This document shows positions 3 to 29,259 of a stretch of 64,000 bases of DNA, piece after piece (within the stretch, counting starts at the first letter, position 1; each line of letters begins with the position of its first letter). The stretch is from contig JAUVZJ010000005.1 in the NCBI GenBank assembly GCA_030602585.1, positions 973 to 64,972 on the forward strand, read 5' to 3'. The DNA is from Candidatus Methanophagales archaeon. Its GTDB lineage: Archaea; Halobacteriota; Syntropharchaeia; Alkanophagales; Methanospirareceae. A program made the translations under genes and the position numbers. The notes beneath the pieces are model-generated. The model was not told the origin of the DNA. It worked only from the letters and a program-made list of their open reading frames with translations, and did not search any database.

Positions 3-89
3 AGAGACCCAACGAAGAAAGTAAGCGAAGAGTACGATGAGTCTGTCTTCGTGAGCACGTTGGTGATGGAGACGAGGGGGGCTGAATGA
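3..89 (+). CDS. 3' end of upstream gene, partial, product unknown
   Basis: The frame is open from the window edge. Stop TGA at 87-89 overlaps the cooC ATG by 4 bp (ATGA coupling). Confidence 0.25.
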   Translation, partial: RDPTKKVSEEYDESVFVSTLVMETRGAE

Positions 90-865
90 AGAAGATAATC
101 GTTACAGGGAAGGGAGGGGTAGGAAAGACGACAATCATCGCAACGCTCTCGAGGTTATTAGCAAGGGAGGGGCATCGGGTTTTAGTGATAGACTGCGACC
201 CAAGCATGAATCTTGCGATGTCACTTGGCGTTTCGCTTTCTGATGTCCTCCCTCTTGCTGAAAATAAAGCGAATATCCATGCGAAGTTGGAGCTGGACCT
301 GGACGATGAACATGCGCATGAAAATGGAAACGAAATCGAAATAGACGAAGTCATCGAGGACTATATTGTCGAAACGAAGGATGGAGTGAAGTTGATTGTA
401 ATGGGAACGATTCCTTATGGTGGTTCCGGCTGCCTGTGTTCATCCATTGCGCTGGTGAAGCTGCTGATAGGATACATTGCATCTGGAGATAACGATTTTG
501 TCATGGTGGATTCTCAAGCAGGAGTTGAAATCTTTGGCAGGGGGCTGGCATCGGAGTTCGACTTTACTCTTGTCATTACAGAACTGATGCCAAAGGCAAT
601 CGAAGTGACAAGGCATGTGATGACGCTATCAAGGGACCTGGGTGTTAAGAAGCAGATTGTAATCGTGAATAAGGTTGAAGATGGCACGGAATGTGAGACA
701 ATCTCACGAGAACTGGGGCTCAATGCAGACCAAATGTATTCTGTGCGATGCGACAAGAAAGTCATTGAGGCGGATAAGAAGGGGCTTCTGATTCTCGATT
801 ACGCACCGCAGGCATCAGTTGTAGAGGATATACAAAGGATAAAAGAAGAGATACTGGAGGGTTAA
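86..865 (+). CDS. cooC: CooC/AcsF-family Ni-insertion ATPase (MinD/ParA fold) for CODH/ACS maturation
   Basis: Deviant Walker A GKGGVGKTT and a CDP motif. A CxC-type motif GCLCSS is positioned like the CooC Ni site. There is a His/acidic insert DDEHAHENG. Confidence 0.7.
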   Translation: MKKIIVTGKGGVGKTTIIATLSRLLAREGHRVLVIDCDPSMNLAMSLGVSLSDVLPLAENKANIHAKLELDLDDEHAHENGNEIEIDEVIEDYIVETKDGVKLIVMGTIPYGGSGCLCSSIALVKLLIGYIASGDNDFVMVDSQAGVEIFGRGLASEFDFTLVITELMPKAIEVTRHVMTLSRDLGVKKQIVIVNKVEDGTECETISRELGLNADQMYSVRCDKKVIEADKKGLLILDYAPQASVVEDIQRIKEEILEG

Positions 866-872
866 ATTTAAA

Positions 873-1073
873 ATGTGCGAATTTGTTGTGTATTTAGAGG
901 AAAATGGGAGTAAAGAAAGAGAAGTGGTGGCAAGGAAGATAATCAAGGCAAAGAAGAGGGATGGAAAGACTGTTCTGATGGATACATCTGGTAATGTGAC
1001 ACCGGTTGAGCATGTAAGTATCGAGGTGGTAGATACGCTTATGCAGGAGTTGATCTTGAGAAAGGAGAGATGA
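873..1073 (+). CDS. cooT: CooT-like small nickel-binding protein
   Basis: 66 aa, begins MC (Cys2 is the CooT Ni ligand). It lies 8 bp downstream of cooC and matches the length of characterised CooT. Confidence 0.45.
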   Translation: MCEFVVYLEENGSKEREVVARKIIKAKKRDGKTVLMDTSGNVTPVEHVSIEVVDTLMQELILRKER

Positions 1074-1094
1074 AGATCGAAAAAGAAGTGAAAA

Positions 1095-1908
1095 ATGGAA
1101 AAAGAAAAGTTTGAATCAGCCAGGGTAAAGGAGAAGATAAAAGAATACTGGGATCGCACAAAGGAGCACGCTTTCTTCAAAGATGATGCGGAAGAAGAGG
1201 CATGGAGGAACTCGCTTCGTGAAGAGTTTGGTGTTGATGGAGAAAAACTAAAAATATTGGACGTTGGTACTGGCAACGGTTCATTAGCTCTCCTTCTCGC
1301 CGAGATGGGACATGATATTGTAGGAATTGACGTCTCAGAGGGAATGCTATCAGTAGCAAGAAAGAAGGCAAAGGAAAGAGGGGTCAACCCTAATCTAAGG
1401 ATTGGTGATGCCGAATCGTTGGATTTTGAAGACGAGTATTTCGATGCAGTTGTCAGTCGGATTGTCCTCTGGACGCTTCCTCATCCTGAGACGGCAATTA
1501 GCGAATGGAGGCGAGTGTTGAAGCCCGGCGGGAAGGTGCGGGAAGGTGTACACATTTGAAATCGATTCGCCTGGTAAAAGGAAAGAAACAGGTAGAAAGA
1601 TCAAGAGGAATCTGGGATTGCTCTTGATCACGATAATTGAGCGGAAGAATGCCTGGAGCAGAATGGCAGATTACGGTGAGGATATAAAGGAAAATCTCCC
1701 ACTGTGCTACGATAAAGCTTCTTCAAGTGCTATCAATAAGGTGGAACTCTTCAGGAAGGGTGAATTCGAAGATGTGACGCTCTTCAAGATGGACGAGGTA
1801 AACGAGATACTCAATAAACAGGAGGAAGTTCCGTTAAGATACAAACTCGTATGGGGTGACTTCGGTGATCGTGTGTGGTACTATATTAGGGGCTGTAAAC
1901 CTGTGTAG
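1095..1908 (+). pseudogene. class I SAM-dependent methyltransferase (Methyltransf_11) with C-terminal extension, frameshifted
   Basis: Motif ILDVGTGNG plus EWRRVLKPGGKV. A 10-bp tandem direct repeat (gggaaggtgc/gggaaggtgt at 1530-1549) shifts the frame. Deleting one copy joins ORFs 1095-1559 and 1546-1908 into a protein colinear with the 1917-2699 paralog. Confidence 0.7.
1530..1549. repeat. 10-bp tandem duplication causing the frameshift in the methyltransferase gene
   Basis: gggaaggtgc followed by gggaaggtgt. Removing one unit restores the KPGGKVYTFEIDSPGK reading. Confidence 0.7.
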
Positions 1909-1916
1909 GTGATAAT

Positions 1917-2699
1917 ATGAACGACATAAAGAATAAGATAAAGGACTACTGGAATGAAAGGTCCTCAACTTTTGACCTTTCCCCAGGTCATGTTATAGGT
2001 AGCAAAGAGGAAAGAGAAGCATGGGTATCTCTTTTTCAAGACAAATTTGGCAAAGGAATACAAAAAATACTCGATATTGGTGCTGGAACTGGCTTTCTTT
2101 CTCTTATTTTGGCTGAGATGGGATATGACGTTGTTGGTGTTGACATTTCAGAAGAGATGTTAGAGAGCGCGAAGAAAAAAGCGGTGGATCGAGGGCTTGA
2201 ACTAAAAGTCGAGTTCAAATTGGGTGATGCTGAAGCTCTGCCCTTTAAAAGTGGGTTTTTTGACGCAATTGTAAATAGAGCTGTCCTATGGACTCTCCCT
2301 GAACCGAAAAAAGCACTCAGTGAATGGAAACGCGTGTTAAACCCTGGTGGAAAGCTCTGTTTCTTCCTTCACGAACCACATAACAATGGAATAACACAAC
2401 GCTTACGACGGCAACTTGGGAATGTTCTAATCCTCTTTATAGAGAGGAGAAATCCATGGCATTCTCTTTATAATAAGAAATTGGGTGTGGAACTTCCTTT
2501 TAGAGGCGGTGTAGAACCTTCAGTAATAACGGAGCTTTTAGAGGATGCCGGGTTTGAACAGGTCTCTGCCAAGCCGATGCACGAAATAAGCAGGTTAAAA
2601 ACCGAAAAAATGCCTTTATGTTACAGAATAGCTCACAACCACAACCATATTCAATACTGTTATACTGCCGTTAAACCAGAACCAGAAGGAGGCGAATAA
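1917..2699 (+). CDS. class I SAM-dependent methyltransferase with conserved C-terminal RNPWH-containing domain
   Basis: ILDIGAGTG SAM motif, VLWTLPEP and EWKRVLNPGGK. The C-terminal IERRNPWHSLY segment is shared with paralogs at 2709, 4697 and 1095. Confidence 0.75.
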   Translation: MNDIKNKIKDYWNERSSTFDLSPGHVIGSKEEREAWVSLFQDKFGKGIQKILDIGAGTGFLSLILAEMGYDVVGVDISEEMLESAKKKAVDRGLELKVEFKLGDAEALPFKSGFFDAIVNRAVLWTLPEPKKALSEWKRVLNPGGKLCFFLHEPHNNGITQRLRRQLGNVLILFIERRNPWHSLYNKKLGVELPFRGGVEPSVITELLEDAGFEQVSAKPMHEISRLKTEKMPLCYRIAHNHNHIQYCYTAVKPEPEGGE

Positions 2700-2708
2700 A
2701 AAAGCGAA

Positions 2709-3149
2709 ATGAAAATAAAATCCGAAGATAGAGAAATAAAAAATATTATCAATCGTCATCTTCTCTGGACACTGCCAAATCCTGAGAAGGCGATGTCCGA
2801 GTGGAAACGTGTTTTGAAACCAGAAGGTAAAGTGCTAATAATTGATGGAAGTTGGGGCGATTACAACAGGTTACGTAGACAGGTCTGGCGTTATCTCGTC
2901 TCTATGCCTTTGATTTTAATCACGGAGCGAAGGAATCCATGGCATGGGCATTATGGCAGGGATATTGAGAAACAATTACCAATGAGGCACAGAAAACGCC
3001 CGCAGGCGGATATTGAACTTCTTGAGAATCTCGGATTCAACGTGGATGTGATGGGAGTATCAATCCCAAGAACCCAGTCGTTTCTCGACTCACTGAAATA
3101 TGGCTATTGGAGTAAGCAGTTTTTGGTAAAGGGAGTTAAGGTTAAATGA
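2709..3149 (+). CDS. stand-alone paralog of the methyltransferase C-terminal domain (no SAM-binding domain)
   Basis: Aligns to residues ~110-251 of the 4697-5452 protein (NRHLLWTLPNPEKAMSEWKRVLKPEGKVLIIDGSW...RRNPWHGHY...KRPQADIELLE). It starts only 10 bp after the preceding gene, so the N-terminal Rossmann part is absent. Confidence 0.55.
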   Translation: MKIKSEDREIKNIINRHLLWTLPNPEKAMSEWKRVLKPEGKVLIIDGSWGDYNRLRRQVWRYLVSMPLILITERRNPWHGHYGRDIEKQLPMRHRKRPQADIELLENLGFNVDVMGVSIPRTQSFLDSLKYGYWSKQFLVKGVKVK

Positions 3150-3164
3150 AGGAGGTAATAAAAA

Positions 3165-4709
3165 ATGTCGACTAGAAAGAAAATTAGCACTGGTATAGCA
3201 ATATGCTTGGTACTGCTGAGCAGTATAATGTTGGGGTGCATAGAACAAGGCACTCAAAACTCAAGACAAACATTAACGATTGGATATGGCAAGGATACAA
3301 ATGTTGCTTCTCCGAAAATGATGGATTTCATGCCAGAGATGATGGTTCTGGAGAGGCTCATAGAATACAAAGATGGTGAAGTACTGCCAAGTCTGGCAAC
3401 TTCGTGGGACATCCAGGATAACAGCAAGACGATAGTTTTTCATTTTAAAAAGGACATTAAATTCTCGGATGGAAGCCCATTTACTGCTGAAGATGTAAAA
3501 TTTACATTCGATAGGCTGAAAGCACTGAAATATTACCATTGGACTGAAGTTGATCGAATAAAAAGTGTAGAAGTGATTGATCCACATACGATAGCTTTTC
3601 ATTACGAGGATGGGAAAGAAGGATACATTGCATTGACTGCTTTTGGGGAATATCATTGCAGTATTATGAGTCCCGTATCGGTTGAACCAAAGGGAGATGT
3701 CAAAGAAAAAATCGTGAATCCCATCGGAACTGGTCCTTGGAAGGTAGACGAGTATGTAAAAGATCAGTACACGATATTTGTGCGGAACGAGATTTATCAT
3801 GGCGAAAAACCAAAATTGGATAAGATTATTGTTAAAGTTATACCAGATGCCGAGACAAGGGTCTTGGCTCTCAGATCGGGCGATGTGGATATGATTGTTG
3901 ACTATTACCATGGTGGATCCAGCTATACTCCTAGAAATTTGTTAGAGCCATTGAAAAGCGAAGGATTCAATGTAATCAAAAATGAGATGCCGATGACCAC
4001 GATAATTAAGTTCAATTACAAAAAAGAGCCGTGGAACGATGTGAGAGTTAGAAAAGCCGTAAACTATGCAATCGAGAAGGATGAGGTTTCGGCACTCTTC
4101 GATAACTGGGTGAATCCGGCAAGACACGGATTGTATAGTGAACAAGGACCCTCCATAAAAGAGGTAAAGGTAGAAGCATATACCAACGATATAAATAAAG
4201 CAAAGACCTTACTTAAGAATGCAGGCTATGAGGAATTGAAAGCAGACCTCGTATTGCAGGGCGAAAATCCCGATGAGGTTAAGCTTTGCGAACTTATACA
4301 GGCACAACTCAAAAAAATTGGCATTCAGGTGAAGCTGAGCGTATTGGAGGGTGGTGCATACAGCGAAAGAAGGAATAAAGGAGATTATGATCTTATGGTA
4401 TATTATATTGGCGGTCCCGAAAGGCGCAGCTACACGAGAACGGACGGCAGGTTTAATCCAAACGCTCCTGAGTTTGGGTACGGGGCATACGATGATCCTG
4501 AGTTGTCAGATGTCCTTGAGAAGGCTGTATCATCTTTCGATGGCAAGGAGCGTCAAGAGGAATTCAAACAGTTTTACCAACTGCTCCACGAGAAGGCAGG
4601 TGTCGTTCCACTCTACTATGATGCAGTGTTTATTGTAGCAGATAAGAAGGTGAAAGGGATCAAATATGTAAGCTCAGAGCCTTGCTTTAGCGGGGTGTGG
4701 ATAGAATGA
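3165..4709 (+). CDS. ABC transporter substrate-binding protein, family 5 (NikA/DppA/OppA-like), lipoprotein
   Basis: Signal peptide with archaeal-type lipobox LLSSIMLGC. Family-5 solute-binding-protein fold motifs (LATSWD, KFSDGSPFTAEDVKFTF). It sits upstream of nikBC-like permeases. Confidence 0.8.
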   Translation: MSTRKKISTGIAICLVLLSSIMLGCIEQGTQNSRQTLTIGYGKDTNVASPKMMDFMPEMMVLERLIEYKDGEVLPSLATSWDIQDNSKTIVFHFKKDIKFSDGSPFTAEDVKFTFDRLKALKYYHWTEVDRIKSVEVIDPHTIAFHYEDGKEGYIALTAFGEYHCSIMSPVSVEPKGDVKEKIVNPIGTGPWKVDEYVKDQYTIFVRNEIYHGEKPKLDKIIVKVIPDAETRVLALRSGDVDMIVDYYHGGSSYTPRNLLEPLKSEGFNVIKNEMPMTTIIKFNYKKEPWNDVRVRKAVNYAIEKDEVSALFDNWVNPARHGLYSEQGPSIKEVKVEAYTNDINKAKTLLKNAGYEELKADLVLQGENPDEVKLCELIQAQLKKIGIQVKLSVLEGGAYSERRNKGDYDLMVYYIGGPERRSYTRTDGRFNPNAPEFGYGAYDDPELSDVLEKAVSSFDGKERQEEFKQFYQLLHEKAGVVPLYYDAVFIVADKKVKGIKYVSSEPCFSGVWIE

Positions 4710-5452
4710 AGGCAAAGGATATTATCAAAGAGGAATGGGATCTGTTAGCTCAGGACTTTGATAACAAGGCAGGACATGGAATACGCACAAAAGAAGAAGA
4801 GGAAGCATGGATAAATCTTTTAACTCGTGCAATCGGGACGAAAAGACTCAAAATATTAGATGTGGGCTGCGGTACCGGTGTGATTGCATTACTTCTTGCA
4901 GAGATGGGTCATGAGGTAACAGGCGTTGATATATCGGAGAGAATGTTGGAACGAGCAAGGGAGAAAGCAAAGAGCATAGAGATTCCAGTGAAGTTCGAGT
5001 TCGGTGATGCAGAAGACCTTCCATTCGATGACGGAAATTTTGATGTTGTAGTTAATAGACATCTCCTTTGGACTATGCTAAACCCTGAGAAAGCAGTAAG
5101 CGAGTGGAAAAGGGTTTTAAAGCCAGAAGGCAGGGTGATAATAATCGATGGTAGCTGGAATGGTCAAGCACTACGCAAACGAGTTTGGCGTTTCCTTGCC
5201 GTGCCTCTGATTTTGATCACAGAGCATCGAATCCCATGGCATGGTCATTACGACAAAGATATGGAGAAGAACTTACCGATGAAGCAGAGAAAACGTCCTC
5301 AGGCAGACATCGAAATTCTTGAGTACTGCGGTTTTGTAGATATTAATATGTCGAAGGTGACAATTCCGATAACCAGAACGTTCATCGAACGGCTGAAGTA
5401 TGGTTACTGGGGAAGTGATGAGTTTTTGCTGAGTGCTACCAAATTGAAATAA
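4697..5452 (+). CDS. class I SAM-dependent methyltransferase with C-terminal His-rich domain, embedded in the nik-like operon
   Basis: ILDVGCGTG, DVVVNRHLLWTM, EWKRVLKPEGRV and a C-terminal HRIPWHGHY. It overlaps the binding-protein stop by 13 bp and ends 3 bp before nikB. Confidence 0.75.
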   Translation: MDRMKAKDIIKEEWDLLAQDFDNKAGHGIRTKEEEEAWINLLTRAIGTKRLKILDVGCGTGVIALLLAEMGHEVTGVDISERMLERAREKAKSIEIPVKFEFGDAEDLPFDDGNFDVVVNRHLLWTMLNPEKAVSEWKRVLKPEGRVIIIDGSWNGQALRKRVWRFLAVPLILITEHRIPWHGHYDKDMEKNLPMKQRKRPQADIEILEYCGFVDINMSKVTIPITRTFIERLKYGYWGSDEFLLSATKLK

Positions 5453-5454
5453 AA

Positions 5455-6402
5455 ATGAAGAAATACATAACAAAAAGATTGCTTTTATTGATCCCGATTA
5501 TGCTTGGGGCTTCTGTACTCTCCTTTTCCATCCTTTATATTGCTCCTGGAGATCCTGCAGAGCTAATGCTTGAGAGGCAGCTGCAGGGTGCTCCAACTAA
5601 AGAACAGATAGATGCGTTCAAAGAGGAGCATGGATTAAACGATCCAATTCCAATCCAGTTTGCAAGATGGCTTTATAAGATATTGCGTGGTGATCTCGGT
5701 ACATCGCTTAGAACCGAAGAGCCAGTACTAAAGGAGTATCTAAATAGATTTCCCGCTTCCCTTGTGCTATTTCTTCTCTCACAGATAATCTCCATCACAA
5801 TAGCGATTCCTTTAGGAATTATATCGGCAGTAAAACACAACTCGAAGGTGGATCATTTTTCCAGGTTTATGGCAATGTTTGGTGCTTCCATGCCAAATTT
5901 TTGGCTGGGCTTGCTTTTAATTCTTTTCTTTGCGGTTTATTTGGATTGGCTTCCAGCCTTTGGTTATGGAGGGATTACGCACATAATCCTTCCAGCAATA
6001 GCCTTGGGGGTATCAGGATGTGCATCGATCATGCGGCTAATGAGGGCAAGTCTGCTCGAGGTTTTACACCTGGATTATATAAGGACTGCGAGAGCAAAGG
6101 GTTTGTGCGAAAAGCTCATTATAGTAAAACATGCTTTAAAAAATGCGTTGATTCCAGTCGTAACAGTTATTGGCTTACATATCAGTCATCTCATTTCAAG
6201 TATGGTGATAGTCGAGGCGATATTTGCATGGCCCGGAGTTGGCAGATTTTTGATTGAATCGATACATGCAAGAGATTTTCCAGTGATTCAAGGCTTTGTT
6301 TTGATTATTGCAATGTTTTTTGTCTTTGCTAATCTGATCGTAGATATTTCGTATACATACTTGGATCCCAGAATACGATATGAGATGGAGAGGATAAAAT
6401 GA
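5455..6402 (+). CDS. nikB: ABC permease NikB/DppB/OppB family
   Basis: 6 TM segments, APGDP N-terminal motif and an EAA-like loop (IRTARAKGL). Confidence 0.85.
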   Translation: MKKYITKRLLLLIPIMLGASVLSFSILYIAPGDPAELMLERQLQGAPTKEQIDAFKEEHGLNDPIPIQFARWLYKILRGDLGTSLRTEEPVLKEYLNRFPASLVLFLLSQIISITIAIPLGIISAVKHNSKVDHFSRFMAMFGASMPNFWLGLLLILFFAVYLDWLPAFGYGGITHIILPAIALGVSGCASIMRLMRASLLEVLHLDYIRTARAKGLCEKLIIVKHALKNALIPVVTVIGLHISHLISSMVIVEAIFAWPGVGRFLIESIHARDFPVIQGFVLIIAMFFVFANLIVDISYTYLDPRIRYEMERIK

Positions 6403-7244
6403 GGCTTAAGATCGTTCAGCAGCTTAAAAAAGATAAAATGGCAGTGATTGGAGTAATAATCATCCTCATTCTTGCCTTCCTTGCGATATTTGCCCCATAC
6501 TTGTCTCTGTATGATCCAATGGAAGTAAACATGGAGAATCGTTTGCTGACCCCAAGTGAAAAACATCCTCTGGGAACTGATCAGTTGGGCAGAGACCTTT
6601 TAAGCAGAATAGTTTATGGGACACGGGTTTCAATAGCTGCAGCGACAATGGCTACCCTTATGATTATGATTTTTGGTGTAACGATAGGGGCAATCGCAGG
6701 ATACTTTGGTGGCGTAGTCGATCAAGCAATAATGCGCGTGGTTGATGTATTATTAGCGTTTCCAAGTTTGATTTTGACAATAGCGATTGCAGGAATCTTG
6801 GGGCCCTCGCTTATGAACCTTATAATTGCTATGACCGCAACTGGGTGGGTAGGTTACTCGAGAATAATTCGTGGTTCTGTTTTGTCTGTAAAAGAAAAAG
6901 AATTCATAGAGGCAGCAAGAGCGATGGGCTGTGGCAATTTGTATATTATTGCTCGTCATATCATACCAAACGTTATTTCTCCAGTGATCGTGATTGCAAC
7001 CATAGATATGGGACACACAATTCTCTCAATCACCGGATTAAGTTTTTTAGGATTGGGAGCACAACCCCCTACTCCAGAATGGGGTGCTATGCTCAATGAT
7101 GGAAAGTCTTTCATGACAACGGCACCACATTTAATGATTTTTCCAGGATTGATGATCATGGTTGTAGTGTTAGCTTTCAACTTCCTGGGTGATGGATTAA
7201 GAGACGCATTGGACCCACGGCTAAGGCAGGTGATGATGAAATAA
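6399..7244 (+). CDS. nikC: ABC permease NikC/DppC/OppC family
   Basis: HPLGTDQLGRD motif and permease TM core. It overlaps nikB by 4 bp. Confidence 0.85.
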   Translation: MRLKIVQQLKKDKMAVIGVIIILILAFLAIFAPYLSLYDPMEVNMENRLLTPSEKHPLGTDQLGRDLLSRIVYGTRVSIAAATMATLMIMIFGVTIGAIAGYFGGVVDQAIMRVVDVLLAFPSLILTIAIAGILGPSLMNLIIAMTATGWVGYSRIIRGSVLSVKEKEFIEAARAMGCGNLYIIARHIIPNVISPVIVIATIDMGHTILSITGLSFLGLGAQPPTPEWGAMLNDGKSFMTTAPHLMIFPGLMIMVVVLAFNFLGDGLRDALDPRLRQVMMK

Positions 7245-7861
7245 AAGATAAAATCAGAGCGTGGTGGGATAACGCACATCAGAACTACGATTGGGTTCAG
7301 GCACATGGTGTTCATTCAGAGCAAGAAAAAGAGATATGGAGAAACGCTTTAACTCAATTACTTAGAATCGAAAAAAAGCTAAAAATACTGGATATAGGCA
7401 CTGGTACTGGTTTTTTGGCATTGTTGCTGGCTGAGATAGGGCATGATGTGACAGGGGCAGATTGGTCAAAGAGTAAACTGGAAAAGGCAAAACAGAAGAT
7501 AAAGAACACCAATATTCCTATAAAGTTTGTGATGGAGGATGCCGAAAAGCTATCCTTCGAGGATAATCTATTTGATGCGGTAGTTAGCAGGCATCTGATT
7601 TGGACATTAGCAAATCCAAAAGCGGCATTTAAAGAATGGGCGAGAGTAACAAAGCCCGGTGGCAAAGTCATAGTAGATGTACCAGAAAAATATTCTCATG
7701 TTGGGAGTCATCACTTTGGAGAGGGAATAGGCAAAGAGTTACCATTTTACAACGGTGCTGATCCAGAGGAGATTGTCAAAATGTTTGAAGATGCAAGACT
7801 GGTGAATGTGTCTGTGCAAAGTTTCAAAAAATTGACTTTGGTGAAAGGGGAAAAATTATGA
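7244..7861 (+). CDS. class I SAM-dependent methyltransferase paralog (start codon uncertain, divergent short C-terminus)
   Basis: Homology (KDKIRAWWDNAHQ...EKEIWRNAL...ILDIGTGTGFLALLLAEIG) starts right at the nikC stop. There is no ATG/GTG between the upstream stop at 7190 and 7415. The ORF track calls TTG 7415-7861. Confidence 0.5.
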   Translation, partial: KDKIRAWWDNAHQNYDWVQAHGVHSEQEKEIWRNALTQLLRIEKKLKILDIGTGTGFLALLLAEIGHDVTGADWSKSKLEKAKQKIKNTNIPIKFVMEDAEKLSFEDNLFDAVVSRHLIWTLANPKAAFKEWARVTKPGGKVIVDVPEKYSHVGSHHFGEGIGKELPFYNGADPEEIVKMFEDARLVNVSVQSFKKLTLVKGEKL

Positions 7862-7903
7862 GTGACAAGTATCACAGAAGAGATTTAACAAGTTGATGGT
7901 ACG

Positions 7904-8830
7904 ATGGAAATGATAATAAACTCTATAATTCGTGCGCTCGAGCTTTGGATATGTGTGCTTCCTTTTACGATCGTTGGTATATTGTTAGCAAGTATTGCCA
8001 TTGAATTCAGAATATTTAATCGATTGTTTCCAGTGCTAAAACCGATATTGCAACGAGCACATTTTAGTCCAGGGTCAGGACTTGCGTTTATAACGGCATT
8101 TGGCTCGCCAATCGCAGCCGTAGCGATGGTCGCTGAACTTTATGCTGAGAAAAAAATAGACCAAAAGGAGGCTTTGTTAGTGACCGTAGCAACTTGGTTT
8201 CCGCAGACAATTTATGAAACCATCGCTTATATCTTCCCTATAATACCATTGCTCGGAATGGTTGGTATTGCATATATATTCTTATTTGTGTTGAATGGAA
8301 TAATAGTAGCAATATTAATGTTTATTATTGGTAGAGCCTTGCTAACCGAGAAGAACTACGAATTTGTTAGGGATAATGAAAAGATAGCCGTTAAAGCAGC
8401 ACTTAAAAGAAGTGTAAAGAGTTCGATAAATCTTTTAAAACGACTTATGATTGTAGGGCTTCCAGTGAGCATTGTAGCAATTGCTCTTATTAATATAGGA
8501 ATATTTGATGCATTGCCTAAATATCTTGGTTGGATGCCGCTACCTCCTGAGGCACTGGCTATAATACCGTTGAAAATTGCAAATCCCATGGCGGCATATA
8601 TCACACTTGCAGATTTAATGAAGACAGGAATTTTGGATTTTAAGTTAGCACTGTTGACTTTACTGATTGCTAGTGCTTTTGTGAGTTTACGATACATTTT
8701 TGCACACAGGCTACCGTATTATTTTGGAATTTTTGGTCCTGTAGTAGGTGTGAAGATAACATCGGTGAGTGCAACATTACGGCTCGGATTGACTGGTTTG
8801 ATGATTTTTGCCTTGATATTGTTTTTATGA
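7904..8830 (+). CDS. polytopic membrane protein (8-9 TM), paralog of 39172-40143, possibly nucleoside-recognition (Gate)-like
   Basis: Hydrophobic profile. It shares architecture and motifs with the ORF between cobN and chlID. The family assignment is tentative. Confidence 0.4.
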   Translation: MEMIINSIIRALELWICVLPFTIVGILLASIAIEFRIFNRLFPVLKPILQRAHFSPGSGLAFITAFGSPIAAVAMVAELYAEKKIDQKEALLVTVATWFPQTIYETIAYIFPIIPLLGMVGIAYIFLFVLNGIIVAILMFIIGRALLTEKNYEFVRDNEKIAVKAALKRSVKSSINLLKRLMIVGLPVSIVAIALINIGIFDALPKYLGWMPLPPEALAIIPLKIANPMAAYITLADLMKTGILDFKLALLTLLIASAFVSLRYIFAHRLPYYFGIFGPVVGVKITSVSATLRLGLTGLMIFALILFL

Positions 8831-8869
8831 AACATCATACCTGAAAATAACGATTGAGGTGAAACTACA

Positions 8870-9191
8870 TTGAAGAAGAGAGCAGAAATCGCAGTAACCG
8901 GAACTGAGCTAAAAGAGCAATACAAGAAGTCCATCGGGAGAACAGTCTTCTTCATCCTCACTCCATCCTTTTTAGTTCTAATCTCTGGCATATCTGCATC
9001 GCTCGGAAGCGCAAACATCCCGATATGGGACACGTATTTTGCATTTCTCCACAAATTCTCCTCCGATCGGATGGTGGCTGTCGGTATTTCCGGGATTGAT
9101 GATCATGATCACGGTGTTAGCCTTCAACTTCCTGGGTGATGGATTAAGAGATGCATTAGACCCACGACTAAGGCAGGTGATGATGAAATGA
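8870..9191 (+). pseudogene. chimeric relic: BtuC/FecCD permease N-terminal stub fused to a copy of the nikC 3' end
   Basis: The N-terminus (AEIAVTGTELKEQYKKSIGRTVFFIL) resembles the BtuC N-terminus at 42396. The last ~100 nt (9089-9191) duplicate nikC 7142-7244 ([30 protein letters not shown] stop). Confidence 0.55.
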
Positions 9192-9381
9192 CCAATCAGT
9201 TGCTAAGCATACATAGCGCCGCTGATCCTATCTTATCTTTTCGCTTTTTCATAGTTGTAAGTAAGAAAAAAATCGAAAATAATATATATATCCTCAACAA
9301 TAAAATCTTAATATGTTTATGTATGAAATAAAATAAAGAGAAAAGCGTGAAAGTGAAAATAAAGAGGGAGGGAATAAAAGA

Positions 9382-12300
9382 ATGTCGAGTAAAAAGAAAA
9401 TTGGTATAGCAATATGTTTGGTATTGTTGAGCAGCATGATGCTGGGGTGTATAGAACGAGAAACTCAGGAATCAGCTACAACCACTCAAGTAGAGCAGGT
9501 ATTGACCCAGGGCTCGTATCGAGACTTTAAAGCTACTGCAGAGGGCAAAAACCTTGTCTTGGAGCCTCTGGTAGGCGTTGATGAATGGGGGAATCCGATT
9601 CCTGGACTTGCCGAGTCGTGGGATGTCTCCCCCGATGGGAAAACTTACACGTTCCATCTGAGAAAAGGCGTTAAGTTTCACGACGGAACGCAGTTCAATG
9701 CTGAAGCTGCAAGATTTTTCATCGAGTGGCAGGGAATGCAGAAGGCGTATGGAAAGTATATGGATCGAACAGAGATCGTAAATGATTATACTGTCCGCGT
9801 TTACCTCGAGAAGTACTATTACGGTTTCTTAGGTGAGTTAGGTCAGCTTATCAGCCCCAATGCGGTGGAGCCGGCAGGGGATGTGAACGGTAAACTGGTT
9901 AACTACATAGGAACAGGTTCTTTCAAGCTTGTGGAATATAAAAAGGATCAGGAAGCCGTCCTCGTAAGGAACGATGACTACTGGGGAAAGAAGCCGAAAC
10001 TTGAGAAGGTCATCTGGAAGGTTGTCCCGGACCCTTACACCCAGGTTTTAGCTCTGAAAGCTGGCGAACTTGACTTGATCGGTGCCGCTGAGCATCATAG
10101 CTGCCTGCCCTATATCGAGATTGCAAAGATGCAGAAAGACCACGATTTTGAGGTTATGTTACATTCCTACGGACGCTATCAGGTCATTGACTTCAATTTT
10201 AAGAAGGAGCCATTCAATGACGTCAGGGTGAGGGAGGCGTTTAACTATGCGATCGACAGGGAACTTATGGTTCATACGCTTTTTGCAGACTTAACCAAGC
10301 CTGCATATTTACTTGGCCCACCCGCGCCCGACTGGGGACCACGTAACATCGAAGGGTATAGATATGACCCCGAGAAGGCGAATCAGCTTCTGGCTGAAGC
10401 AGGCTGGAGAGATACAGACGGTGACGGGATCCTGGACAAAGACGGGAAGCCTTTTACCTGCGAGCTTATAGTTCCGTCCGGCGAGGCGAATGCCGATGTG
10501 GTCGCCGTATTCGTTCAATCCGAGCTTAAAAAAATCGGCGTGCAGATGAAAGTCACCACTATGGAAAGCGGCGCTGCGTGGGACATGCGAAAGAAAGGTG
10601 AAGGGGAATATGATCTGTTCGTGCACCATTGCTGCGGTGCAGCTGCGATGGCATGTCTGGGTATAGGAGGTAAATATCATTCCGCTTATGCCTATGGAAA
10701 AGGAGTTTATCACAACGACGAACTGGATAAACAGATAGAGAAGGCTTTTACTTCCCTCGACAAAACCGAGCGGAGAAAGGCATTCGACCAGATATGGAAG
10801 ATATTGCACGAAGAATCTCCTTCTATACCGCTTTACGACATCACGAAGCCCGTGATATTCAGGAATAACATGCAAGGCTTTAAGTTCGGACCGACCATAT
10901 TCGATATGGATTTAAGTGATGTAGAGGTAGTTGAATATGAGGTGGAGGCTCCCACACCAACAGAGCAGGTGCTAATCCAGGGGGCGTATAAAGACTTTAA
11001 ACAGGCTGTAGAGGGTAGAAACCTTGTATTCGAGACTCTAATGGGCGTAGATGAGCAGGGGAATTCCGTTCCAAAACTTGCCGAATCGTGGGAAATATCT
11101 CCCGATGGGAAAACTTATACATTCCATCTAAGAAAGGGTGTTAAGTTTCATGACAGGACGCCGTTCAACGCATCGGTGGCAAAATTTTCTATTGAATGGT
11201 CTGGAAAAAAGAAGGCATTTGGAAAGTATATTGACTGGATAGAAATAGTGGATGACCATACCCTTCGAGTTTACCTCAAGGAATATTATCGCCCGTTTTT
11301 ACTTGACTTGGCAAGCGAGTTCAGTAGCAAAGTCATCAGCCCCAATGCGGTGGAGCCTGCATGGGATGTGAACGGTAAGCTGGTTAATTATATAGGCACA
11401 GGTCCCTTCAAGCTTGCGGACTATAAAAAGGATCAGGAAGCCGTCCTCGTAAGGAATGATGACTACTGGGGAAAGAAGCCGAAGCTTGAGAAGGTTATCT
11501 GGAAGACCGTCCCGGACCCTTATACTCAGGTTTTAGCGTTGAAAGCCGGCGAACTCGATTTAATCGGAGCTGCTGAGCATCATAGCTCCCTACCCTATAT
11601 CGAGATTGCGGAGTTGCAGAAAGACCCAAATTTAGGGGTCATTTTGCATTCCTACGGACGCTATCAGGTCATCAGATTCAATTGCGAAAAGGAGCCATTC
11701 AATGATGTCAGGGTAAGGAAGGCATGTAACTATGCGATTGACAAGGAACTTATGGTTCATACGCTTTTTGCGGATATTCCGAAGCCGAGTTATCGCATAA
11801 CTGACGCAAGATTCGAGTGGGGTCCTTCTAACATCGACGAGAAGTACTACCGATATGATTTGGATAAGGCGAAAAAGCTTATGACTGAAGCTGGCTGGGC
11901 TGATACTGATGGAGACGGGATTCTGGATAAAGATGGGAAGCATTTTACCTGCGAGCTTATAGTCCCGGCTGGCGAGGCGAATGCCGATGTCGTAGCTCCC
12001 TTTATGCAATCCGAATTAAAGAAACTTGGAATTCAGATGAATATTATCACTCTTGAAAGCGGTGCTGCTGGAAAAAGGCAAAAAGAGGGTAAATATGATT
12101 TGTACGTGCACCATAGCGGGTGTTTACCATCTGTCGCAGGATACATAGAAATAGGCGGAAACTATCACGCAGGTGGATGGCCACATGGTTACCAAAACGA
12201 TACGCTGGACAAACTGATAGAGAAAGCATGGACTACTCCTGATGAAGCTGAGTGGAGAGCGCTCTGCGATCAGATCTGGCAACTATTGCATAAAGAGGCG

Positions 12301-12417
12301 CCCTGTATTCCACTCTACGACATCACGAAGCCGGTGGTATTCAAGAAGAACGTGCACGGCTTTAAGTTCGGACCGACCATGTTCGAGATGGATTTAAGTG
12401 ATGTGGAGATAGTGTAG
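9382..12417 (+). CDS. family-5 ABC substrate-binding lipoprotein made of two tandem complete binding modules (1011 aa)
   Basis: Lipobox LLSSMMLGC. Residues ~30-515 and ~520-1011 are colinear paralogs (AESWDVSPDGKTYTFHLRKGVKFHDGTQFNAEAA vs AESWEISPDGKTYTFHLRKGVKFHDRTPFNASVA; both end FKFGPT.F.MDLSDVE.V). Nucleotide identity between the halves is roughly 85%. Confidence 0.8.
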   Translation: MSSKKKIGIAICLVLLSSMMLGCIERETQESATTTQVEQVLTQGSYRDFKATAEGKNLVLEPLVGVDEWGNPIPGLAESWDVSPDGKTYTFHLRKGVKFHDGTQFNAEAARFFIEWQGMQKAYGKYMDRTEIVNDYTVRVYLEKYYYGFLGELGQLISPNAVEPAGDVNGKLVNYIGTGSFKLVEYKKDQEAVLVRNDDYWGKKPKLEKVIWKVVPDPYTQVLALKAGELDLIGAAEHHSCLPYIEIAKMQKDHDFEVMLHSYGRYQVIDFNFKKEPFNDVRVREAFNYAIDRELMVHTLFADLTKPAYLLGPPAPDWGPRNIEGYRYDPEKANQLLAEAGWRDTDGDGILDKDGKPFTCELIVPSGEANADVVAVFVQSELKKIGVQMKVTTMESGAAWDMRKKGEGEYDLFVHHCCGAAAMACLGIGGKYHSAYAYGKGVYHNDELDKQIEKAFTSLDKTERRKAFDQIWKILHEESPSIPLYDITKPVIFRNNMQGFKFGPTIFDMDLSDVEVVEYEVEAPTPTEQVLIQGAYKDFKQAVEGRNLVFETLMGVDEQGNSVPKLAESWEISPDGKTYTFHLRKGVKFHDRTPFNASVAKFSIEWSGKKKAFGKYIDWIEIVDDHTLRVYLKEYYRPFLLDLASEFSSKVISPNAVEPAWDVNGKLVNYIGTGPFKLADYKKDQEAVLVRNDDYWGKKPKLEKVIWKTVPDPYTQVLALKAGELDLIGAAEHHSSLPYIEIAELQKDPNLGVILHSYGRYQVIRFNCEKEPFNDVRVRKACNYAIDKELMVHTLFADIPKPSYRITDARFEWGPSNIDEKYYRYDLDKAKKLMTEAGWADTDGDGILDKDGKHFTCELIVPAGEANADVVAPFMQSELKKLGIQMNIITLESGAAGKRQKEGKYDLYVHHSGCLPSVAGYIEIGGNYHAGGWPHGYQNDTLDKLIEKAWTTPDEAEWRALCDQIWQLLHKEAPCIPLYDITKPVVFKKNVHGFKFGPTMFEMDLSDVEIV

Positions 12418-12436
12418 ATTCCACGGTGAAGTAGCG

Positions 12437-13387
12437 ATGATAAAGTTCATAGCCAGGAGATTGATGATAGCCGTAGTGGTAATGCTTGGCGTTTCATTAA
12501 TCTCCTTTTCTCTCGTTTTTTTTGCGCCAGGCAATCCTGCTGAGGTCATAATCAGGGCAGAAATTGGAGAAGAACCCACGCTTGAAGAAATCGAATTCTT
12601 TTTTCAAGAACATGGTTTAAAAGCTCCTTTTTTTACACAATGTGCGCAATGGTTGTATATGATTACACATGGCGACCTTGGAACTTCTTTCAGGACTGAA
12701 GAGCCAGTTTTGGTGGAATTTATTGACAGGTTCCCAGCAACCCTTGAACTGGCAGTAGCTGCGATGTTCATAGCGATACTCATATCCATTCCATTGGGAA
12801 TCCTCGCGGCGATGAAGCAAAACTCGGTTTTAGACCATGGCAGCAGGTTTGTAGCGCTGTGGGGTGTATCTATGCCGAATTTCTGGCTGGGCTTACTTTT
12901 AATTCTATTTTTCTCTGTCAGACTCGATTTGTTCCCATGTTTTGGCTATGGAGGCATAGAATATCTGATACTGCCAGCCATTACACTTGGAACCGGTATG
13001 ACCGCATCCCTCATGCGATTGATGCGTGCAAGCATGCTTGAGGTTTTACGCCAGGACTACATTAGAACGGCAAGAGCCAAAGGTTTGATGGAAAGGGTGG
13101 TGATATGGAAGCACGGTTTTAAGAACGCGCTAATTCCAGTAGTAACGGTTATGGGCATGCAAGTTGGTCATTTATTGGCTGGTGCTGTAATAGTCGAGAC
13201 AATATTTGCATGGCCCGGGGTAGGCAAATTTCTGGTTGATGGGATATACGCCAGAGACTATCCCGTAATTCAAGGCTTTATTTTGATTATTGCATTGTTC
13301 TTTGTTTTATCAAATTTGGCTGTGGATATTTTATACACCTATTTAGACCCGAGAATAAGATACGATGTAAAAAAGGGGATGAAATGA
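12437..13387 (+). CDS. nikB: ABC permease NikB/DppB family
   Basis: Paralog of 5455-6402 (FAPGNPAEV, IRTARAKGL). Confidence 0.85.
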   Translation: MIKFIARRLMIAVVVMLGVSLISFSLVFFAPGNPAEVIIRAEIGEEPTLEEIEFFFQEHGLKAPFFTQCAQWLYMITHGDLGTSFRTEEPVLVEFIDRFPATLELAVAAMFIAILISIPLGILAAMKQNSVLDHGSRFVALWGVSMPNFWLGLLLILFFSVRLDLFPCFGYGGIEYLILPAITLGTGMTASLMRLMRASMLEVLRQDYIRTARAKGLMERVVIWKHGFKNALIPVVTVMGMQVGHLLAGAVIVETIFAWPGVGKFLVDGIYARDYPVIQGFILIIALFFVLSNLAVDILYTYLDPRIRYDVKKGMK

Positions 13388-14226
13388 TGTCAATCGTTCA
13401 ACAACTTAAAAAGGATAAAATAGCAATGATTGGAGCGGTAATTATCCTTTTTCTTGCTGGTATTGCAATACTCGCTCCGCATATAACTCCATACGATCCA
13501 ATAGAGTTGGACTTAGAGAACCGCTTATCATCTTCAGATGTGAATCATTTGATGGGTACCGATAACCTTGGTAGAGATGTTTTAAGTAGGGTCATTTACG
13601 GGGCAAGGATTTCGCTGAGTATGGCAACAGTTGTTGTCGTGATTGTTATGCTTTTGGGTATAGCGATGGGAACCATTGCAGGATACCTTGGTGGTATTAT
13701 TGATGGAACAATAATGCGAGTGGTTGATGTTTTATTGGCATTTCCAAATATAATCCTGGCATTAGTTATTGCAGGTATTCTTGGTCCCTCTCTCACCAAT
13801 GTTATGATTGCTCTCAGTGCAATATGGTGGGTAGGTTACGCAAGAATAATTCGTGGTTCTGTTTTGTCTGTGAAGGAAAAAGAGTTTGTTGAGGCTGCGA
13901 GAGCAATGGGCTGCAGCGACACACATATCGCCATTCGCCACATACTGCCAAATGTTCTATCACCAGTAATAGTTCTCGCAACCCTTGATATGGGTCATAT
14001 AATACTTTCAATTGCAGCACTGAGTTTTCTCGGATTGGGTGCGCAACCACCGATACCTGAGTGGGGTACGATGCTCAATGAAGGAAGACCCTTTATGGAG
14101 ACCGCTCCGCATTTAATGATTTTTCCGGGATTGATGATCATGGTCGTAGTGTTAGCTTTCAACTTCCTGGGTGATGGACTGCGGGATGCACTGGATCCGA
14201 GGATGAAGGAGGTGATGATGAAATGA
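13384..14226 (+). CDS. nikC: ABC permease NikC/DppC family
   Basis: Paralog of 6399-7244 (NHLMGTDNLGRD). Overlaps the neighbouring gene by 4 bp. Confidence 0.85.
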   Translation: MMSIVQQLKKDKIAMIGAVIILFLAGIAILAPHITPYDPIELDLENRLSSSDVNHLMGTDNLGRDVLSRVIYGARISLSMATVVVVIVMLLGIAMGTIAGYLGGIIDGTIMRVVDVLLAFPNIILALVIAGILGPSLTNVMIALSAIWWVGYARIIRGSVLSVKEKEFVEAARAMGCSDTHIAIRHILPNVLSPVIVLATLDMGHIILSIAALSFLGLGAQPPIPEWGTMLNEGRPFMETAPHLMIFPGLMIMVVVLAFNFLGDGLRDALDPRMKEVMMK

Positions 14227-15164
14227 CATTGCTAAGTATACAAAATCTAAAAGTCCATTTCCATACCGAAGATGGTGCGGTAAGAGCAGTAAATGATGTA
14301 GATCTGGTGATAGAAGAGGGAGAGACCCTGGGCTTAATCGGGGAAACGGGATGCGGTAAAACTGTATTAGGGCTCTCGATACTGCGTCTGCTCTCTGAGA
14401 ACACAAAGGTAGAGGGTAAAATTTTATACAAGGGAAAAGATTTGCTCAAACTCAATGAGGGTGAGATGAGGAAGATAAGGGGAAAAGAGATAGCGATGAT
14501 ATTTCAAAATCCATTAACCTCGATGAATCCGGTTCTTACAATAGGAACACAAATTTCTGAGCCCTTTGAGTTGCACCAAGGCTTAAAAAAGAAAGATGCA
14601 ATACAAAAAGTGATTGCGATATTAAAGTTGGTGCGAATACCGTCACCATCGGAAAGAATAAATGAATATCCTCATGAGTTCAGTGGTGGAATGAGACAGA
14701 GGGCTATGATTGCGATGGGACTTGCTTGTGAGCCCTCATTAATCCTTGCGGACGAGCCGACCAAGGGTCTGGATGTCACGATACAAGCACAAGTTGTAGA
14801 CCTGATGAAAGAACTAACGACAAACTCCAAAACTTCTATGCTGCTGATAACTCACGATCTTGGTGTTGCAGCCGAGTTATGCGATAACATTGCAGTAATG
14901 TATCCCGGTGAAATCGTCGAATACGCAGATATTAAAGAATTGTTCAAAAACCCTAAACATCCATATACACAGGGTTTTCTTGGTTCTCTTCCAGGCAGAG
15001 GTTTAAAGCCAATGAATGGTATGAGTCCATCTCTAATTGATCTTCCAGAAGGGTGTAAATTCCATCCAAGGTGTCCATTCGCAAGAGAGAGATGCAAGAA
15101 TAAGCGACCAGAAATGGTAGAAATAGGGAAAAAACATTTTGTGAGGTGTTTCTTATATGATTAA
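14223..15164 (+). CDS. nikD: ABC ATPase NikD/DppD/OppD family
   Basis: Walker A GETGCGKT, signature FSGGMRQR, Walker B LILADEP, and a C-terminal oligopeptide-ABC Cys-rich tail. Confidence 0.85.
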   Translation: MTLLSIQNLKVHFHTEDGAVRAVNDVDLVIEEGETLGLIGETGCGKTVLGLSILRLLSENTKVEGKILYKGKDLLKLNEGEMRKIRGKEIAMIFQNPLTSMNPVLTIGTQISEPFELHQGLKKKDAIQKVIAILKLVRIPSPSERINEYPHEFSGGMRQRAMIAMGLACEPSLILADEPTKGLDVTIQAQVVDLMKELTTNSKTSMLLITHDLGVAAELCDNIAVMYPGEIVEYADIKELFKNPKHPYTQGFLGSLPGRGLKPMNGMSPSLIDLPEGCKFHPRCPFARERCKNKRPEMVEIGKKHFVRCFLYD

Positions 15165-16101: not shown

Positions 16102-16126
16102 TACCTTTTCAGCTAATGCTATTATT

Positions 16127-17053: not shown

Positions 17054-17054
17054 G

Positions 17055-19648: not shown

Positions 19649-19960
19649 ATCAGTAGTGATAAAACCAATAGATTCGCGGACCTTTCCACTATCTTCTGCA
19701 ATGTTATACCCGTTTACATATGCAGTTCCCTCTGTGGGTAAAATCAGCGTGCATAATATTTTTATAAACGTAGTCTTGCCAGCTCCATTTGGTCCGAGAA
19801 TACCAAACAATTCCCCTTTTCCAATCTTTATGTTCACCATCTCTACCGCCGTTATCTCATCTTTTCTAAAGGGATGCATGAGAAAGTCGGTAAATCCTTT
19901 TTGCAGTGCGAACTTCTTCGTTAGGTCATACGTTTCAATAGAATATTCCAATATTTTCAT
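19628..19960 (-). pseudogene. ABC-2 ATPase N-terminal fragment truncated by the IS
   Basis: Walker A GPNGAGKTT is present, and the protein ends ...ITTDPEFLAL with the last 7 codons encoded by the IS terminus. Confidence 0.7.
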
Positions 19961-20120: not shown

Positions 20121-20245
20121 ATGACATCGAGCACTAACCATATCTGGAATAGGAACAAAGAGAGCGGAAATAAAAGCACAATACAAAAAGTTTATCGGGA
20201 GGAAAATTCTATTTATTATTATCTCTTCTCTCATCTTAATTTTTG
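20121..20245 (+). pseudogene. BtuC-type permease N-terminal stub (frameshifted)
   Basis: About 85% nucleotide identity to the 5' end of the gene at 42396 ([29 protein letters not shown] across a frameshift). It runs directly into the truncated ABC ATPase. Confidence 0.6.
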
Positions 20246-25148: not shown

Positions 25149-25151
25149 AAG

Positions 25152-28681: not shown

Positions 28682-28794
28682 GGATGTGGGTAATGAAAGA
28701 CATTCTGAAGTTGGGGGTGTTAGATTTAAGAAAAGGATACTGATTTAAAGTTTAATTATAGGAAACACCAAACAATTTTGTGAAGTGAAGACCT

Positions 28795-29254: not shown

Positions 29255-29259
29255 GTATA

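Follow-up and report, generated by a model that had tools for sequence, protein, structure and literature searches.

Why would genes for S-adenosylmethionine (SAM)-dependent methyltransferases (MTs) be woven into an operon for the import of nickel? The question is raised by a 64 kb stretch of contig JAUVZJ010000005.1, from a Candidatus Methanophagales archaeon, which is referred to here as the window. An initial annotation had described five paralogous MT copies (MT1 to MT5) at positions 1095-7861, interspersed with genes of a nik-type importer, and searches with each copy as the query (tblastn) recovered exactly five MT-homologous segments in the window, all within that interval. The DNA of the window is 92.6% identical to a contig of an ANME-2 (anaerobic methanotrophic archaea) metagenome-assembled genome (MAG) and approximately 79% identical to a Methanosarcinales MAG, and it encodes Ftr; on these grounds the host is taken to be ANME-2-like.

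Gene neighborhoods were surveyed using one genome per species; of the 420 relatives returned, the best 79-80 were analysed, resulting in 79 loci from other species (labeled L0xx, with P0001 and P0004 denoting ortholog proteins). Gene content was determined from custom open reading frame (ORF) calls and BLAST clustering, and annotation was given to the recurrent clusters. Conservation counts were taken over 76 homologs, and the same 76 sequences were supplied to AlphaFold for structure prediction.

Linkage to metal importers

The association between this MT family and importers is real and general across anaerobes. An SBP_bac_5 or NikB/C gene was found within 300 bp of the MT in 43 of the 79 loci and within 5 kb in 53, any ATP-binding cassette (ABC) importer gene was found within 300 bp in 60, and a member of a metal-uptake family was found within 5 kb in 67. 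The linkage clearly held in this search for scattered, transporter-free homologs, which argues for the proposed functional tie between MT and importer. In 34 instances an MT4-type gene immediately precedes the binding-protein gene, and in 14 it immediately follows the ATPase gene. The MT is usually the sole enzyme in the operon, and the same operon is also present in a 79%-identical relative. An operon of the order MT-SBP-nikBCDE-MT occurs in Methanosarcina acetivorans and M. barkeri (L046/L069). By rough reasoning, adjacency by chance would amount to a few percent if a genome held about ten transporter loci among a few thousand genes.

The loci span Methanosarcinales, Methanomicrobiales, Bacillota (Firmicutes), Chloroflexota, and Desulfobacterota, and come from archaea including Methanosarcina, Methanothrix, Methanoregula, Methanospirillum, Methanocaldococcus, Archaeoglobus, ANME-1, ANME-2, and ANME-3, and from bacteria including Desulforudis, Desulfofundulus, Desulfosporosinus, Dehalococcoidia, Desulfobacter, and clostridia. 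The arrangement had been called non-standard; it is unusual in comparison with textbook nik operons, but within anaerobes it is standard rather than special to this genome.

This linkage bears on a common annotation of the family. Many homologs carry the Joint Genome Institute name "ubiquinone/menaquinone biosynthesis C-methylase UbiE" (COG2226) and match TIGR01934 in part, and the UbiE/MenG/COQ5 enzymes resemble the MT family in Pfam superfamily and in length; yet the idea that these are housekeeping quinone methylases of the UbiE/MenG type that sit in importer operons by chance is scarcely credible and is already contradicted by the TIGR01934 scores (89 for MT4, 76 for MT2, and 85 for MT5, relative to a cut-off of 158), by the tight linkage to importers across phyla, and by start and stop codons that overlap or abut those of transporter genes. 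The context of the MT family is metal import, not quinone synthesis.

Recurrent neighbors of the MT included DUF4198 (19 loci), Peripla_BP_2/FecCD (17), CbiX-MT fusions (12), FmdE (11), Gate (11), and CooC (5). In the fusions, found in about 12 loci, a CbiX small-chelatase domain is joined to a class I MT of a different subfamily; one example (L008, 8782-10002) immediately precedes an MT3/MT4-type gene and overlaps it. The DUF4198 proteins beside MTs (L021 10232-10993, L025 8737-9462, L005 5904-6641, and L085 9220-9984) have no signal peptide and instead begin with a short leader followed by a conserved ..GHE(I/V)W.. sequence, whereas the characterised periplasmic member is secreted; these proteins may be cytoplasmic metal carriers.

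Enzyme class and the C-terminal segment

A Methyltransf_11-like N-domain had been attributed to every copy, and this description fits four of the five: MT1, MT2, MT4, and MT5 score 94-105 bits (cut-off 21.2) and possess the SAM-binding motifs (GxGxG, the acidic end of strand 2, and GDAE), whereas MT3 scores 26.6 bits over the last 39 profile positions and has none of these motifs. The AlphaFold model, with a predicted local distance difference test (pLDDT) score of 91.1 and a predicted template modeling (pTM) score of 0.89, is a single class I MT domain with the seven-stranded Rossmann-like fold. D55, G57, G59, G61, D78, and A105 are invariant among the 76 homologs, and G103, D104, and E106 are at least 90% conserved. 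Cut-off, predicted fold, and motifs together place the family among the class I SAM-dependent methyltransferases (Pfam Methyltransf_11/25/31), with SAM-dependent methyl transfer as the predicted activity. No NCBIfam model exceeded its cut-off for any MT copy, including CpaM (87 relative to 180) and DVU_1556 (79 relative to 155), and Pfam returned no match to the C-terminal part.

That C-terminal part had been described as a conserved, His-rich domain of most copies, marked by the motif E(R/H)R.PWHGHY...KRPQADIE and perhaps conferring metal-dependent regulation. The motif is exact in MT3 and MT4, degenerate in MT1 and MT2, and absent from MT5. A metal-binding domain that regulates the MT is favored by the EHR/ERR-x-PWHGHY sequence shared by MT3 and MT4 and by two nearly invariant histidines, H27 and H122, which are located outside the segment; even so, we regard it as extremely improbable. 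In the model, residues 141-152, 213-221, and 242-249 form strands 5-7, residues 159-176 form a lid helix, and a further helix lies between strands 6 and 7, making the segment part of the single MT fold. It has three histidines in 102 residues, and within the motif E176 (73/76) and P180 (68/76) are conserved, with H177, H182, and H184 present in 6, 15, and 24 of the 76 homologs, respectively. The lid and C-terminal part are the least conserved region between paralogs and subfamilies, at 14-37% identity relative to 49-56% for the core. The segment was also considered as a mobile domain, which was rejected: a search of the last 102 residues against 1.84 billion representatives matched only 22 proteins, in which the full-length matches lie at the C-terminal end of proteins of ~250 amino acids and the rest are short fragments. 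On the strength of the model, the segment is best described as the family-specific, substrate-side half of the enzyme rather than an added metal-binding module. It is the normal end of its family, as had been allowed for, but no assigned substrate comes with it, as none of the curated families, solved structures, and papers found assigns a substrate to these MTs.

Polar residues that are invariant, or nearly so, across the family (K7, W14, D22, H27, E34, W38, R121, H122, W125, D151, R165, and E176) are located on the cap helices, the loops after strands 4 and 5, and the lid, which are substrate pocket elements in class I small-molecule MTs. The structural comparison also bears on the proposal that the family methylates a nearby metal-trafficking protein, such as CooT, a transporter subunit, or cytoplasmic DUF4198 (at its conserved N-terminal His region), thereby adjusting how that protein binds metal. 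The top structural neighbor, LahSB (PDB 6UAK), is a lanthipeptide MT that methylates a peptide C-terminal carboxyl group; DUF4198 lies within six genes of the MT in its 19 loci, directly adjacent in several, and the DUF4198 copies without a signal peptide retain the ..GHE(I/V)W.. N-terminus. However, the profile match to LahSB covers the Rossmann core only (positions 45-148), its cap, lid, and C-terminus are unrelated to those of the MT family, and it belongs to a cluster for a ribosomally synthesized and post-translationally modified peptide that has no transporter link. The other top neighbors are small-molecule enzymes, protein N-terminal MTs rank 47th and 54th, small-molecule enzymes typically have a cap, a lid, and an insertion between strands 6 and 7 of the kind seen here, and most loci offer no single candidate target protein. 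Protein methylation is, in our judgment, quite unlikely.

Methyl esterification of metal-tetrapyrroles or of corrinoid or F430 precursors, imported or handled by the cell, by a ChlM/BchM-like carboxyl MT is very unlikely. ChlM/BchM is likewise a class I MT, acting right after the CobN-family Mg-chelatase ChlH, and genes for CobN, a ChlI/D-type chelatase, and a NifH-like protein are in the window; CbiX-MT fusions adjoin family members, and two proteins that bind heme, HbpA and DppA, are among the relatives of SBP_bac_5. Set against this, the TIGR02021 BchM/ChlM score is 56 relative to a cut-off of 158.9, CobN occurs in only two of the 79 loci, dozens of other MTs are at least as close as ChlM, and the MT fused to CbiX falls in a different MT cluster.

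Detoxification, in which toxic metalloids or thiols entering with the metal would be methylated in the manner of TehB, ArsM, or thiol MTs, is similarly a very improbable role. It draws on weak Pfam TehB matches, partial NCBIfam ArsM matches, and the sulfidic habitats of the hosts, but the scores are far below the cut-offs (ArsM, PRK11873, 60 relative to 263 for MT4; TehB, 37 relative to 303 for MT5), and the Cys triad required by ArsM has no counterpart, no cysteine column being conserved in either the 22 or the 76 homologs. Genes of the ars, teh, or efflux type were absent from the recurrent neighbors. The thiol S-methyltransferases GtmA/TmtA and XrdM differ further in that they serve self-protection in fungal or bacterial secondary metabolism, are not coupled to transporters, and share <20% identity with the MTs.

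Gene order of the cluster

From 86 to 17819, all genes are on the + strand and tightly packed. Their assignments are as follows.

86-865, + strand: cooC-like Ni-insertion ATPase, the first gene of the co-directional cluster (Pfam CbiA/ParA/NifH-type P-loop; CXC motif, GCLC, in the translation)
873-1073, + strand: cooT Ni chaperone (Pfam PF10133 CooT, 33.6 bits, cut-off 27; Cys2, MCEF...)
1095-1908, + strand: MT1, frameshifted pseudogene (N part Methyltransf_11, E 2.8e-28)
1917-2699, + strand: MT2, intact class I SAM methyltransferase of 260 amino acids (Methyltransf_11, E 2.6e-29)
2709-3149, + strand: MT3, truncated remnant of 146 amino acids (Pfam profile positions 57-95 only)
3165-4709, + strand: Nik/Cnt-like extracellular substrate-binding lipoprotein, SBP_bac_5 (Pfam E 8.5e-83; signal sequence followed by Cys)
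4706-5452 (alternative GTG at 4697), + strand: MT4, intact class I SAM methyltransferase (Methyltransf_11, E 3.1e-30)
5455-6402, + strand: nikB-type permease (NCBIfam Opp2B "nickel ABC transporter permease", 386 bits, cut-off 350)
6399-7244, + strand: nikC-type permease (NCBIfam TIGR02790 nickel_nikC, 361.7 bits, cut-off 358.45)
7241/7244-7861, + strand: MT5, distinct subfamily of ~208 amino acids, start codon lost (Methyltransf_11, E 1e-26)
7904-8830, + strand: Gate-domain membrane protein (Pfam Gate, E 1.4e-5, 25.9 bits, below the cut-off of 29.6)
8870-9086, + strand: 5' fragment of a fecCD-type permease gene, probable debris of an inserted block (BLASTP against the FecCD of the window at 42396-43493, 51% over 45 amino acids, E 4e-11)
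9087-9189, + strand: second copy of the nikC 3' end, a 103-nt direct repeat (90% identical to 7140-7242), probably marking the other insertion edge
9382-16101, + strand: second nik operon, comprising a fused double binding protein (9382-12417), nikB, nikC, nikD, and nikE
16127-17819, + strand: DrrAB-type ABC-2 exporter, ATPase and permease, directly after nikE (NCBIfam TIGR01188 drrA, 332 bits, cut-off 312)

The cooC-cooT-MT order is orthologous to that found in L001-L005, and the position of the DrrAB-type exporter after nikE is retained in L005, L011, L013, L015, and L016. The first nik operon (3165-7244) is without NikD/NikE ATPases of its own, with MT5 and Gate standing in their place, and the only nikD and nikE genes of the cluster are those of the second operon, whose products match OppD/DppF and NikD/E-type models below the cut-offs (240 relative to 319 and 254 relative to 333). 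The fused binding protein (1011 amino acids) contains two complete SBP_bac_5 domains, for both of which nikA is the best NCBIfam model, with a score of 610 that is summed over the two domains. Equally long binding-protein genes are present in relatives (L011 10754-13900 and L015 3837-7000).

State and ancestry of the five copies

Three copies follow cooT in tandem, one frameshifted and one retaining only the C-terminal part, in agreement with the initial annotation. The reading frame of MT1 is broken where 10 bp, CGGGAAGGTG, have been duplicated in tandem (1529-1538 and 1539-1548); with one repeat unit removed, MT1 aligns from end to end (70-73% identity over ~266 amino acids) with intact orthologs of 262-275 amino acids (L016, L014, L008, L012, and L007). 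MT2 is 77% identical to its counterpart at L005 7615-8439, and the tandem order of an MT1-type followed by an MT2-type gene is retained in six loci. All that would precede strand 4, SAM-binding motifs I-III included, is missing from MT3; the remainder is 60% identical to MT4 residues 111-251, and the full-length orthologs of MT3 of 255 amino acids in L008 (9995-10762, 71%) and L007 share 69-71% identity. Exact-sequence look-up recovered no record of the frameshifted MT1 or truncated MT3 product, leaving both lesions without independent confirmation.

MT4 lies between the binding-protein gene and nikB, as reported, but the reported 13-bp overlap assumed the GTG at 4697. The MT4 start is most likely the ATG at 4706, which gives a 4-bp ATGA overlap with the binding-protein stop, because the closest homologs (P0001 and P0004) are 248 amino acids long and begin at its counterpart. 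The MT4 stop is 2 bp before the nikB ATG.

Paralogs share 35-51% identity in pairwise comparisons (MT3/MT4, 60%), whereas orthologs of each MT type in other Methanosarcinales are 68-79% identical. MT5 matches a subfamily in Methanosarcina at 68-89% identity and full coverage and is, by these comparisons, a separate subfamily of ~208 amino acids rather than a shortened MT4. The five copies accordingly represent four old subfamilies, not recent duplicates. As the sole intact copies, only MT2 and MT4 can be predicted to be active, and most MT copies appear to be decaying in this genome.

A recombination mosaic around MT5

The initial annotation was correct in placing one copy, MT5, against the nikC stop. 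Between the upstream stop (~7190) and 7415, no ATG, GTG, or TTG is available to MT5; its orthologs begin with MNAEIKDKIR, and the window reads ..GDDEIKDKIR. The junction falls within 7 nt of microhomology (GAAATAA) shared by the 3' end of nikC and the 5' end of MT5. When window positions 7230-7246 are aligned with 14212-14228, the nikD ATG (AAATGA) is seen to have become ATA (AAATAA) behind the same GGTGAT element, and the same base change turns the nikC stop from TGA to TAA. Downstream, the 103-nt copy of the nikC 3' end (9087-9189) comes after the 5' fecCD fragment. The native setting of the MT5 subfamily is represented in Methanosarcina acetivorans (L085) by the order PBP2-DUF4198-MT-Gate-FecCD, and MT-Gate pairs are also present in L030, L032, L038, L040, L022, and L077.

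Because of the nikC 3'-end repeat, the fecCD fragment, and the M. acetivorans setting, we infer that a block comprising MT5, Gate, and truncated fecCD recombined into the 3' end of nikC, displacing nikD and nikE and thereby removing the MT5 start codon. The MT5 junction is found again in an independent assembly from SRR14872670 (L084), which matches 7167-9966 at 99.96% identity; the junction is therefore not an assembly artefact. A relative with the simpler order cooC-cooT-MT2type-SBP-MT4type-nikBCDE-ABC2 aligns blockwise with the window; MT1, the MT3 remnant, and the MT5 block are therefore additions from a second cluster type, and the cluster in this genome is a recombination mosaic. A programmed frameshift from nikC into MT5 was also considered and judged unlikely, as the Lys codon before the stop does not offer good -1 re-pairing (GAA).

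Metal identity and regulation

The nikB and nikC products exceed the curated nickel-permease cut-offs, and each of the three binding domains (the single one and the two fused) matches nikA better than any other NCBIfam model. Both here and in relatives, the operon also includes cooC, which has a CXC motif, and cooT, which has Cys2. FmdE, CbiX, and CbiMNQO genes are near the MT in some loci. Published work characterises DUF4198 as a fold that captures metal (PMC12663993). Cobalamin riboswitches (Rfam) were found in four of 17 bacterial loci (L023, L025, L027, and L042), where they precede BtuFCD or CbiMNQO genes, are on the other strand, or are downstream. The predicted metal is nickel or possibly cobalt, which stays a candidate because of the CbiMNQO genes and cobalamin riboswitches near some bacterial loci.

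The Escherichia coli nik operon has the same order of binding protein, B, C, D, and E; it differs in having no MT, whereas here one binding protein scores below the NikA cut-off, the other consists of two fused binding domains, and the operon also includes cooC and cooT.

What the methyltransferase may act upon

The reading that we tentatively favor, without giving it even chances, is that the family regularly serves as an accessory to the chelated-metal ABC importers of strict anaerobes, more often those of Nik type than those of Fec/Btu type, and consists of uncharacterised cytoplasmic small-molecule MTs that act on the organic ligand carrying Ni or Co through the importer. NikA and CntA bind metal-chelate complexes, not bare ions. 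The extracellular binding lipoprotein would capture Ni(II), possibly Co(II), in complex with a small organic chelator, and NikBC, served by the NikDE ATPases of the second operon, would import the complex. In the cytoplasm, the MT would use SAM to methylate a donor group of the chelator, for which a carboxylate is our guess and a thiol or an imidazole would be alternatives. The methylated chelator, now of lower affinity, would pass its metal to CooT/CooC or, in other genomes, to DUF4198 or CbiX proteins, and the spent ligand would not be re-chelated and may exit via the DrrAB-type or Gate-type membrane proteins. Ligand methylation is proposed because the relatives of the binding protein bind chelates, the MT is cytoplasmic and usually the sole enzyme, the pocket residues are conserved, and the lid varies with the importer. 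The short-lid MT5 type pairs with Fec-type rather than Nik-type importers, and the divergence of the lid between subfamilies together with this pairing fits enzymes that track different ligands. That the transported ligand is the substrate, which of its groups would be methylated, and whether this would occur after import or before export are all deduced from such context; single-MT, exporter-free bacterial operons would fit capping after import.

Several observations weigh against this proposal. Three of the five MT copies in the window are broken, and selection on extra copies therefore seems weak here. The single binding protein reaches 251 bits against its best NCBIfam model, nickel_nikA, below the cut-off of 393 and with CntA second, and its PDB relatives NikA, CntA, HbpA, and DppA are nearly tied; given this score and the closeness to DppA/HbpA, the cargo may be something other than a Ni chelate. 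Transporter context is absent from 12 of the 79 loci, mostly those of Methanomicrobiales, and the linkage counts come from our own ORF calls and BLAST clusters for the best 80 of 420 relatives, without a matched control family. No riboswitch was found by Rfam directly 5' of the MT-nik operon in the 17 bacterial loci, and a search for a NikR-type palindrome in 85 upstream regions found no recurrence beyond closely related genomes. We know of no precedent for metal release triggered by methylation, and our literature search returned no substrate, biochemical, or genetic data for the family.

The same gene content could also reflect biosynthesis, in which the MTs would convert a common metabolite into a methylated nickelophore or complete such a conversion, a DrrAB-type or Gate protein would export it, and Nik would re-import it, as in a Cnt-like system with methylation as the sole dedicated chemistry. 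The DrrA-type exporter directly after nikE in the window and in the five loci given above, the conserved MT-Gate pairs, the frequent position of the MT as the first gene of the operon, and the retention in Methanosarcinales of three or four MT subfamilies in tandem plus a CbiX-MT fusion, which resembles a multi-step pathway, all point in this direction, and the exporter and MT-Gate pairs may fit a nickelophore-finishing version in Methanosarcinales. We nevertheless consider biosynthesis unlikely, as most bacterial and many archaeal loci hold a single MT and lack both an exporter and further biosynthetic genes, genes resembling those for nicotianamine synthase or opine dehydrogenase were not seen among the recurrent neighbors, and the literature searched reports no methanogen metallophore. 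The staphylopine locus (CntKLM-CntABCDF-CntE) is alike in combining a Nik/Opp-family importer of a metal chelate, a cytoplasmic SAM-using enzyme, and an exporter; its CntL, however, transfers the aminobutyrate of SAM and has the nicotianamine-synthase fold, whereas the enzyme here is a true Methyltransf_11 methyltransferase, and CntL-, CntK-, and CntM-like genes were not seen among the recurrent MT neighbors (annotated clusters only). A ligand- or metallophore-directed role for the MT remains the best reading of the locus.

Other features of the window

Metal uptake genes are unusually dense at 23949-35009, where Peripla_BP_2 (Fec/Btu-type) genes start at 23949, 25152, 29771, and 33909 with ABC-2 exporter genes between them. 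A CobN-type chelatase at 35314-39074 is split into ORFs 35314-36906 and 36903-39074 (NCBIfam PRK05989.2-4, positions 1-533 and 546-1276) and may be either a frameshift or pseudogene or a real two-piece CobN. It is followed by another protein with a Gate domain (39172-40143), a chelatase ATPase of the ChlI/ChlD type (40324-42399; TIGR02442 above cut-off), FecCD (42396-43493), an ABC ATPase, and a NifH-like protein (44551-45429; PRK13230 above cut-off, CfbC 339, below its cut-off of 402), such that 39172-45429 forms a chelatase-plus-importer island. A DDE transposase gene (17943-19469, - strand) adjoins a disrupted ABC-2 exporter, of which the ATPase N-terminus is at 19628-19960 (- strand), the rest of the ATPase is at 20243-21178 (+ strand), and only a C-terminal fragment of the permease is present (21692-22189). 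An ORF of 159 amino acids at 26537-27016 has a SPASM iron-sulfur domain without the radical-SAM core and is probably a gene remnant, and a protein of 519 amino acids at 53899-55458 (- strand) contains bacterial thrombospondin type 3 (TSP3) calcium-binding repeats, here in an archaeal genome.

Implications

Methanogens and methane-oxidising archaea have a high demand for Ni, which is required for methyl-coenzyme M reductase (MCR)/F430, carbon monoxide dehydrogenase/acetyl-CoA synthase (CODH/ACS), and hydrogenases, and in their habitats sulfide makes Ni scarce. A full-text literature search found no report of an MT in nik operons, with coverage of subscription journals being partial, and an earlier mention is therefore possible; Ni uptake in methanogens was described as mechanistically unknown in a recent paper. 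The common "UbiE" label on these genes is a misannotation. It is a doubtful but substantive prospect that SAM-dependent methylation is an integral, unrecognised step of the acquisition of chelated Ni (or Co) in strict anaerobes, either as a release switch that caps an imported nickelophore or as a means of making a methylated nickelophore for sulfidic habitats. Were this true, the family would be a new accessory component of the Nik- and Fec-type importers of methanogens, ANME archaea, sulfate reducers, Dehalococcoidia, and clostridia, and, should the transported ligand prove to be its substrate, the enzyme would open a way to identify an anaerobe nickelophore chemically and would lead to a new mode of handling metal chelates. 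An MT wired into importer operons would provide a concrete and, in Methanosarcina, genetically testable handle on how methanogens take up nickel.

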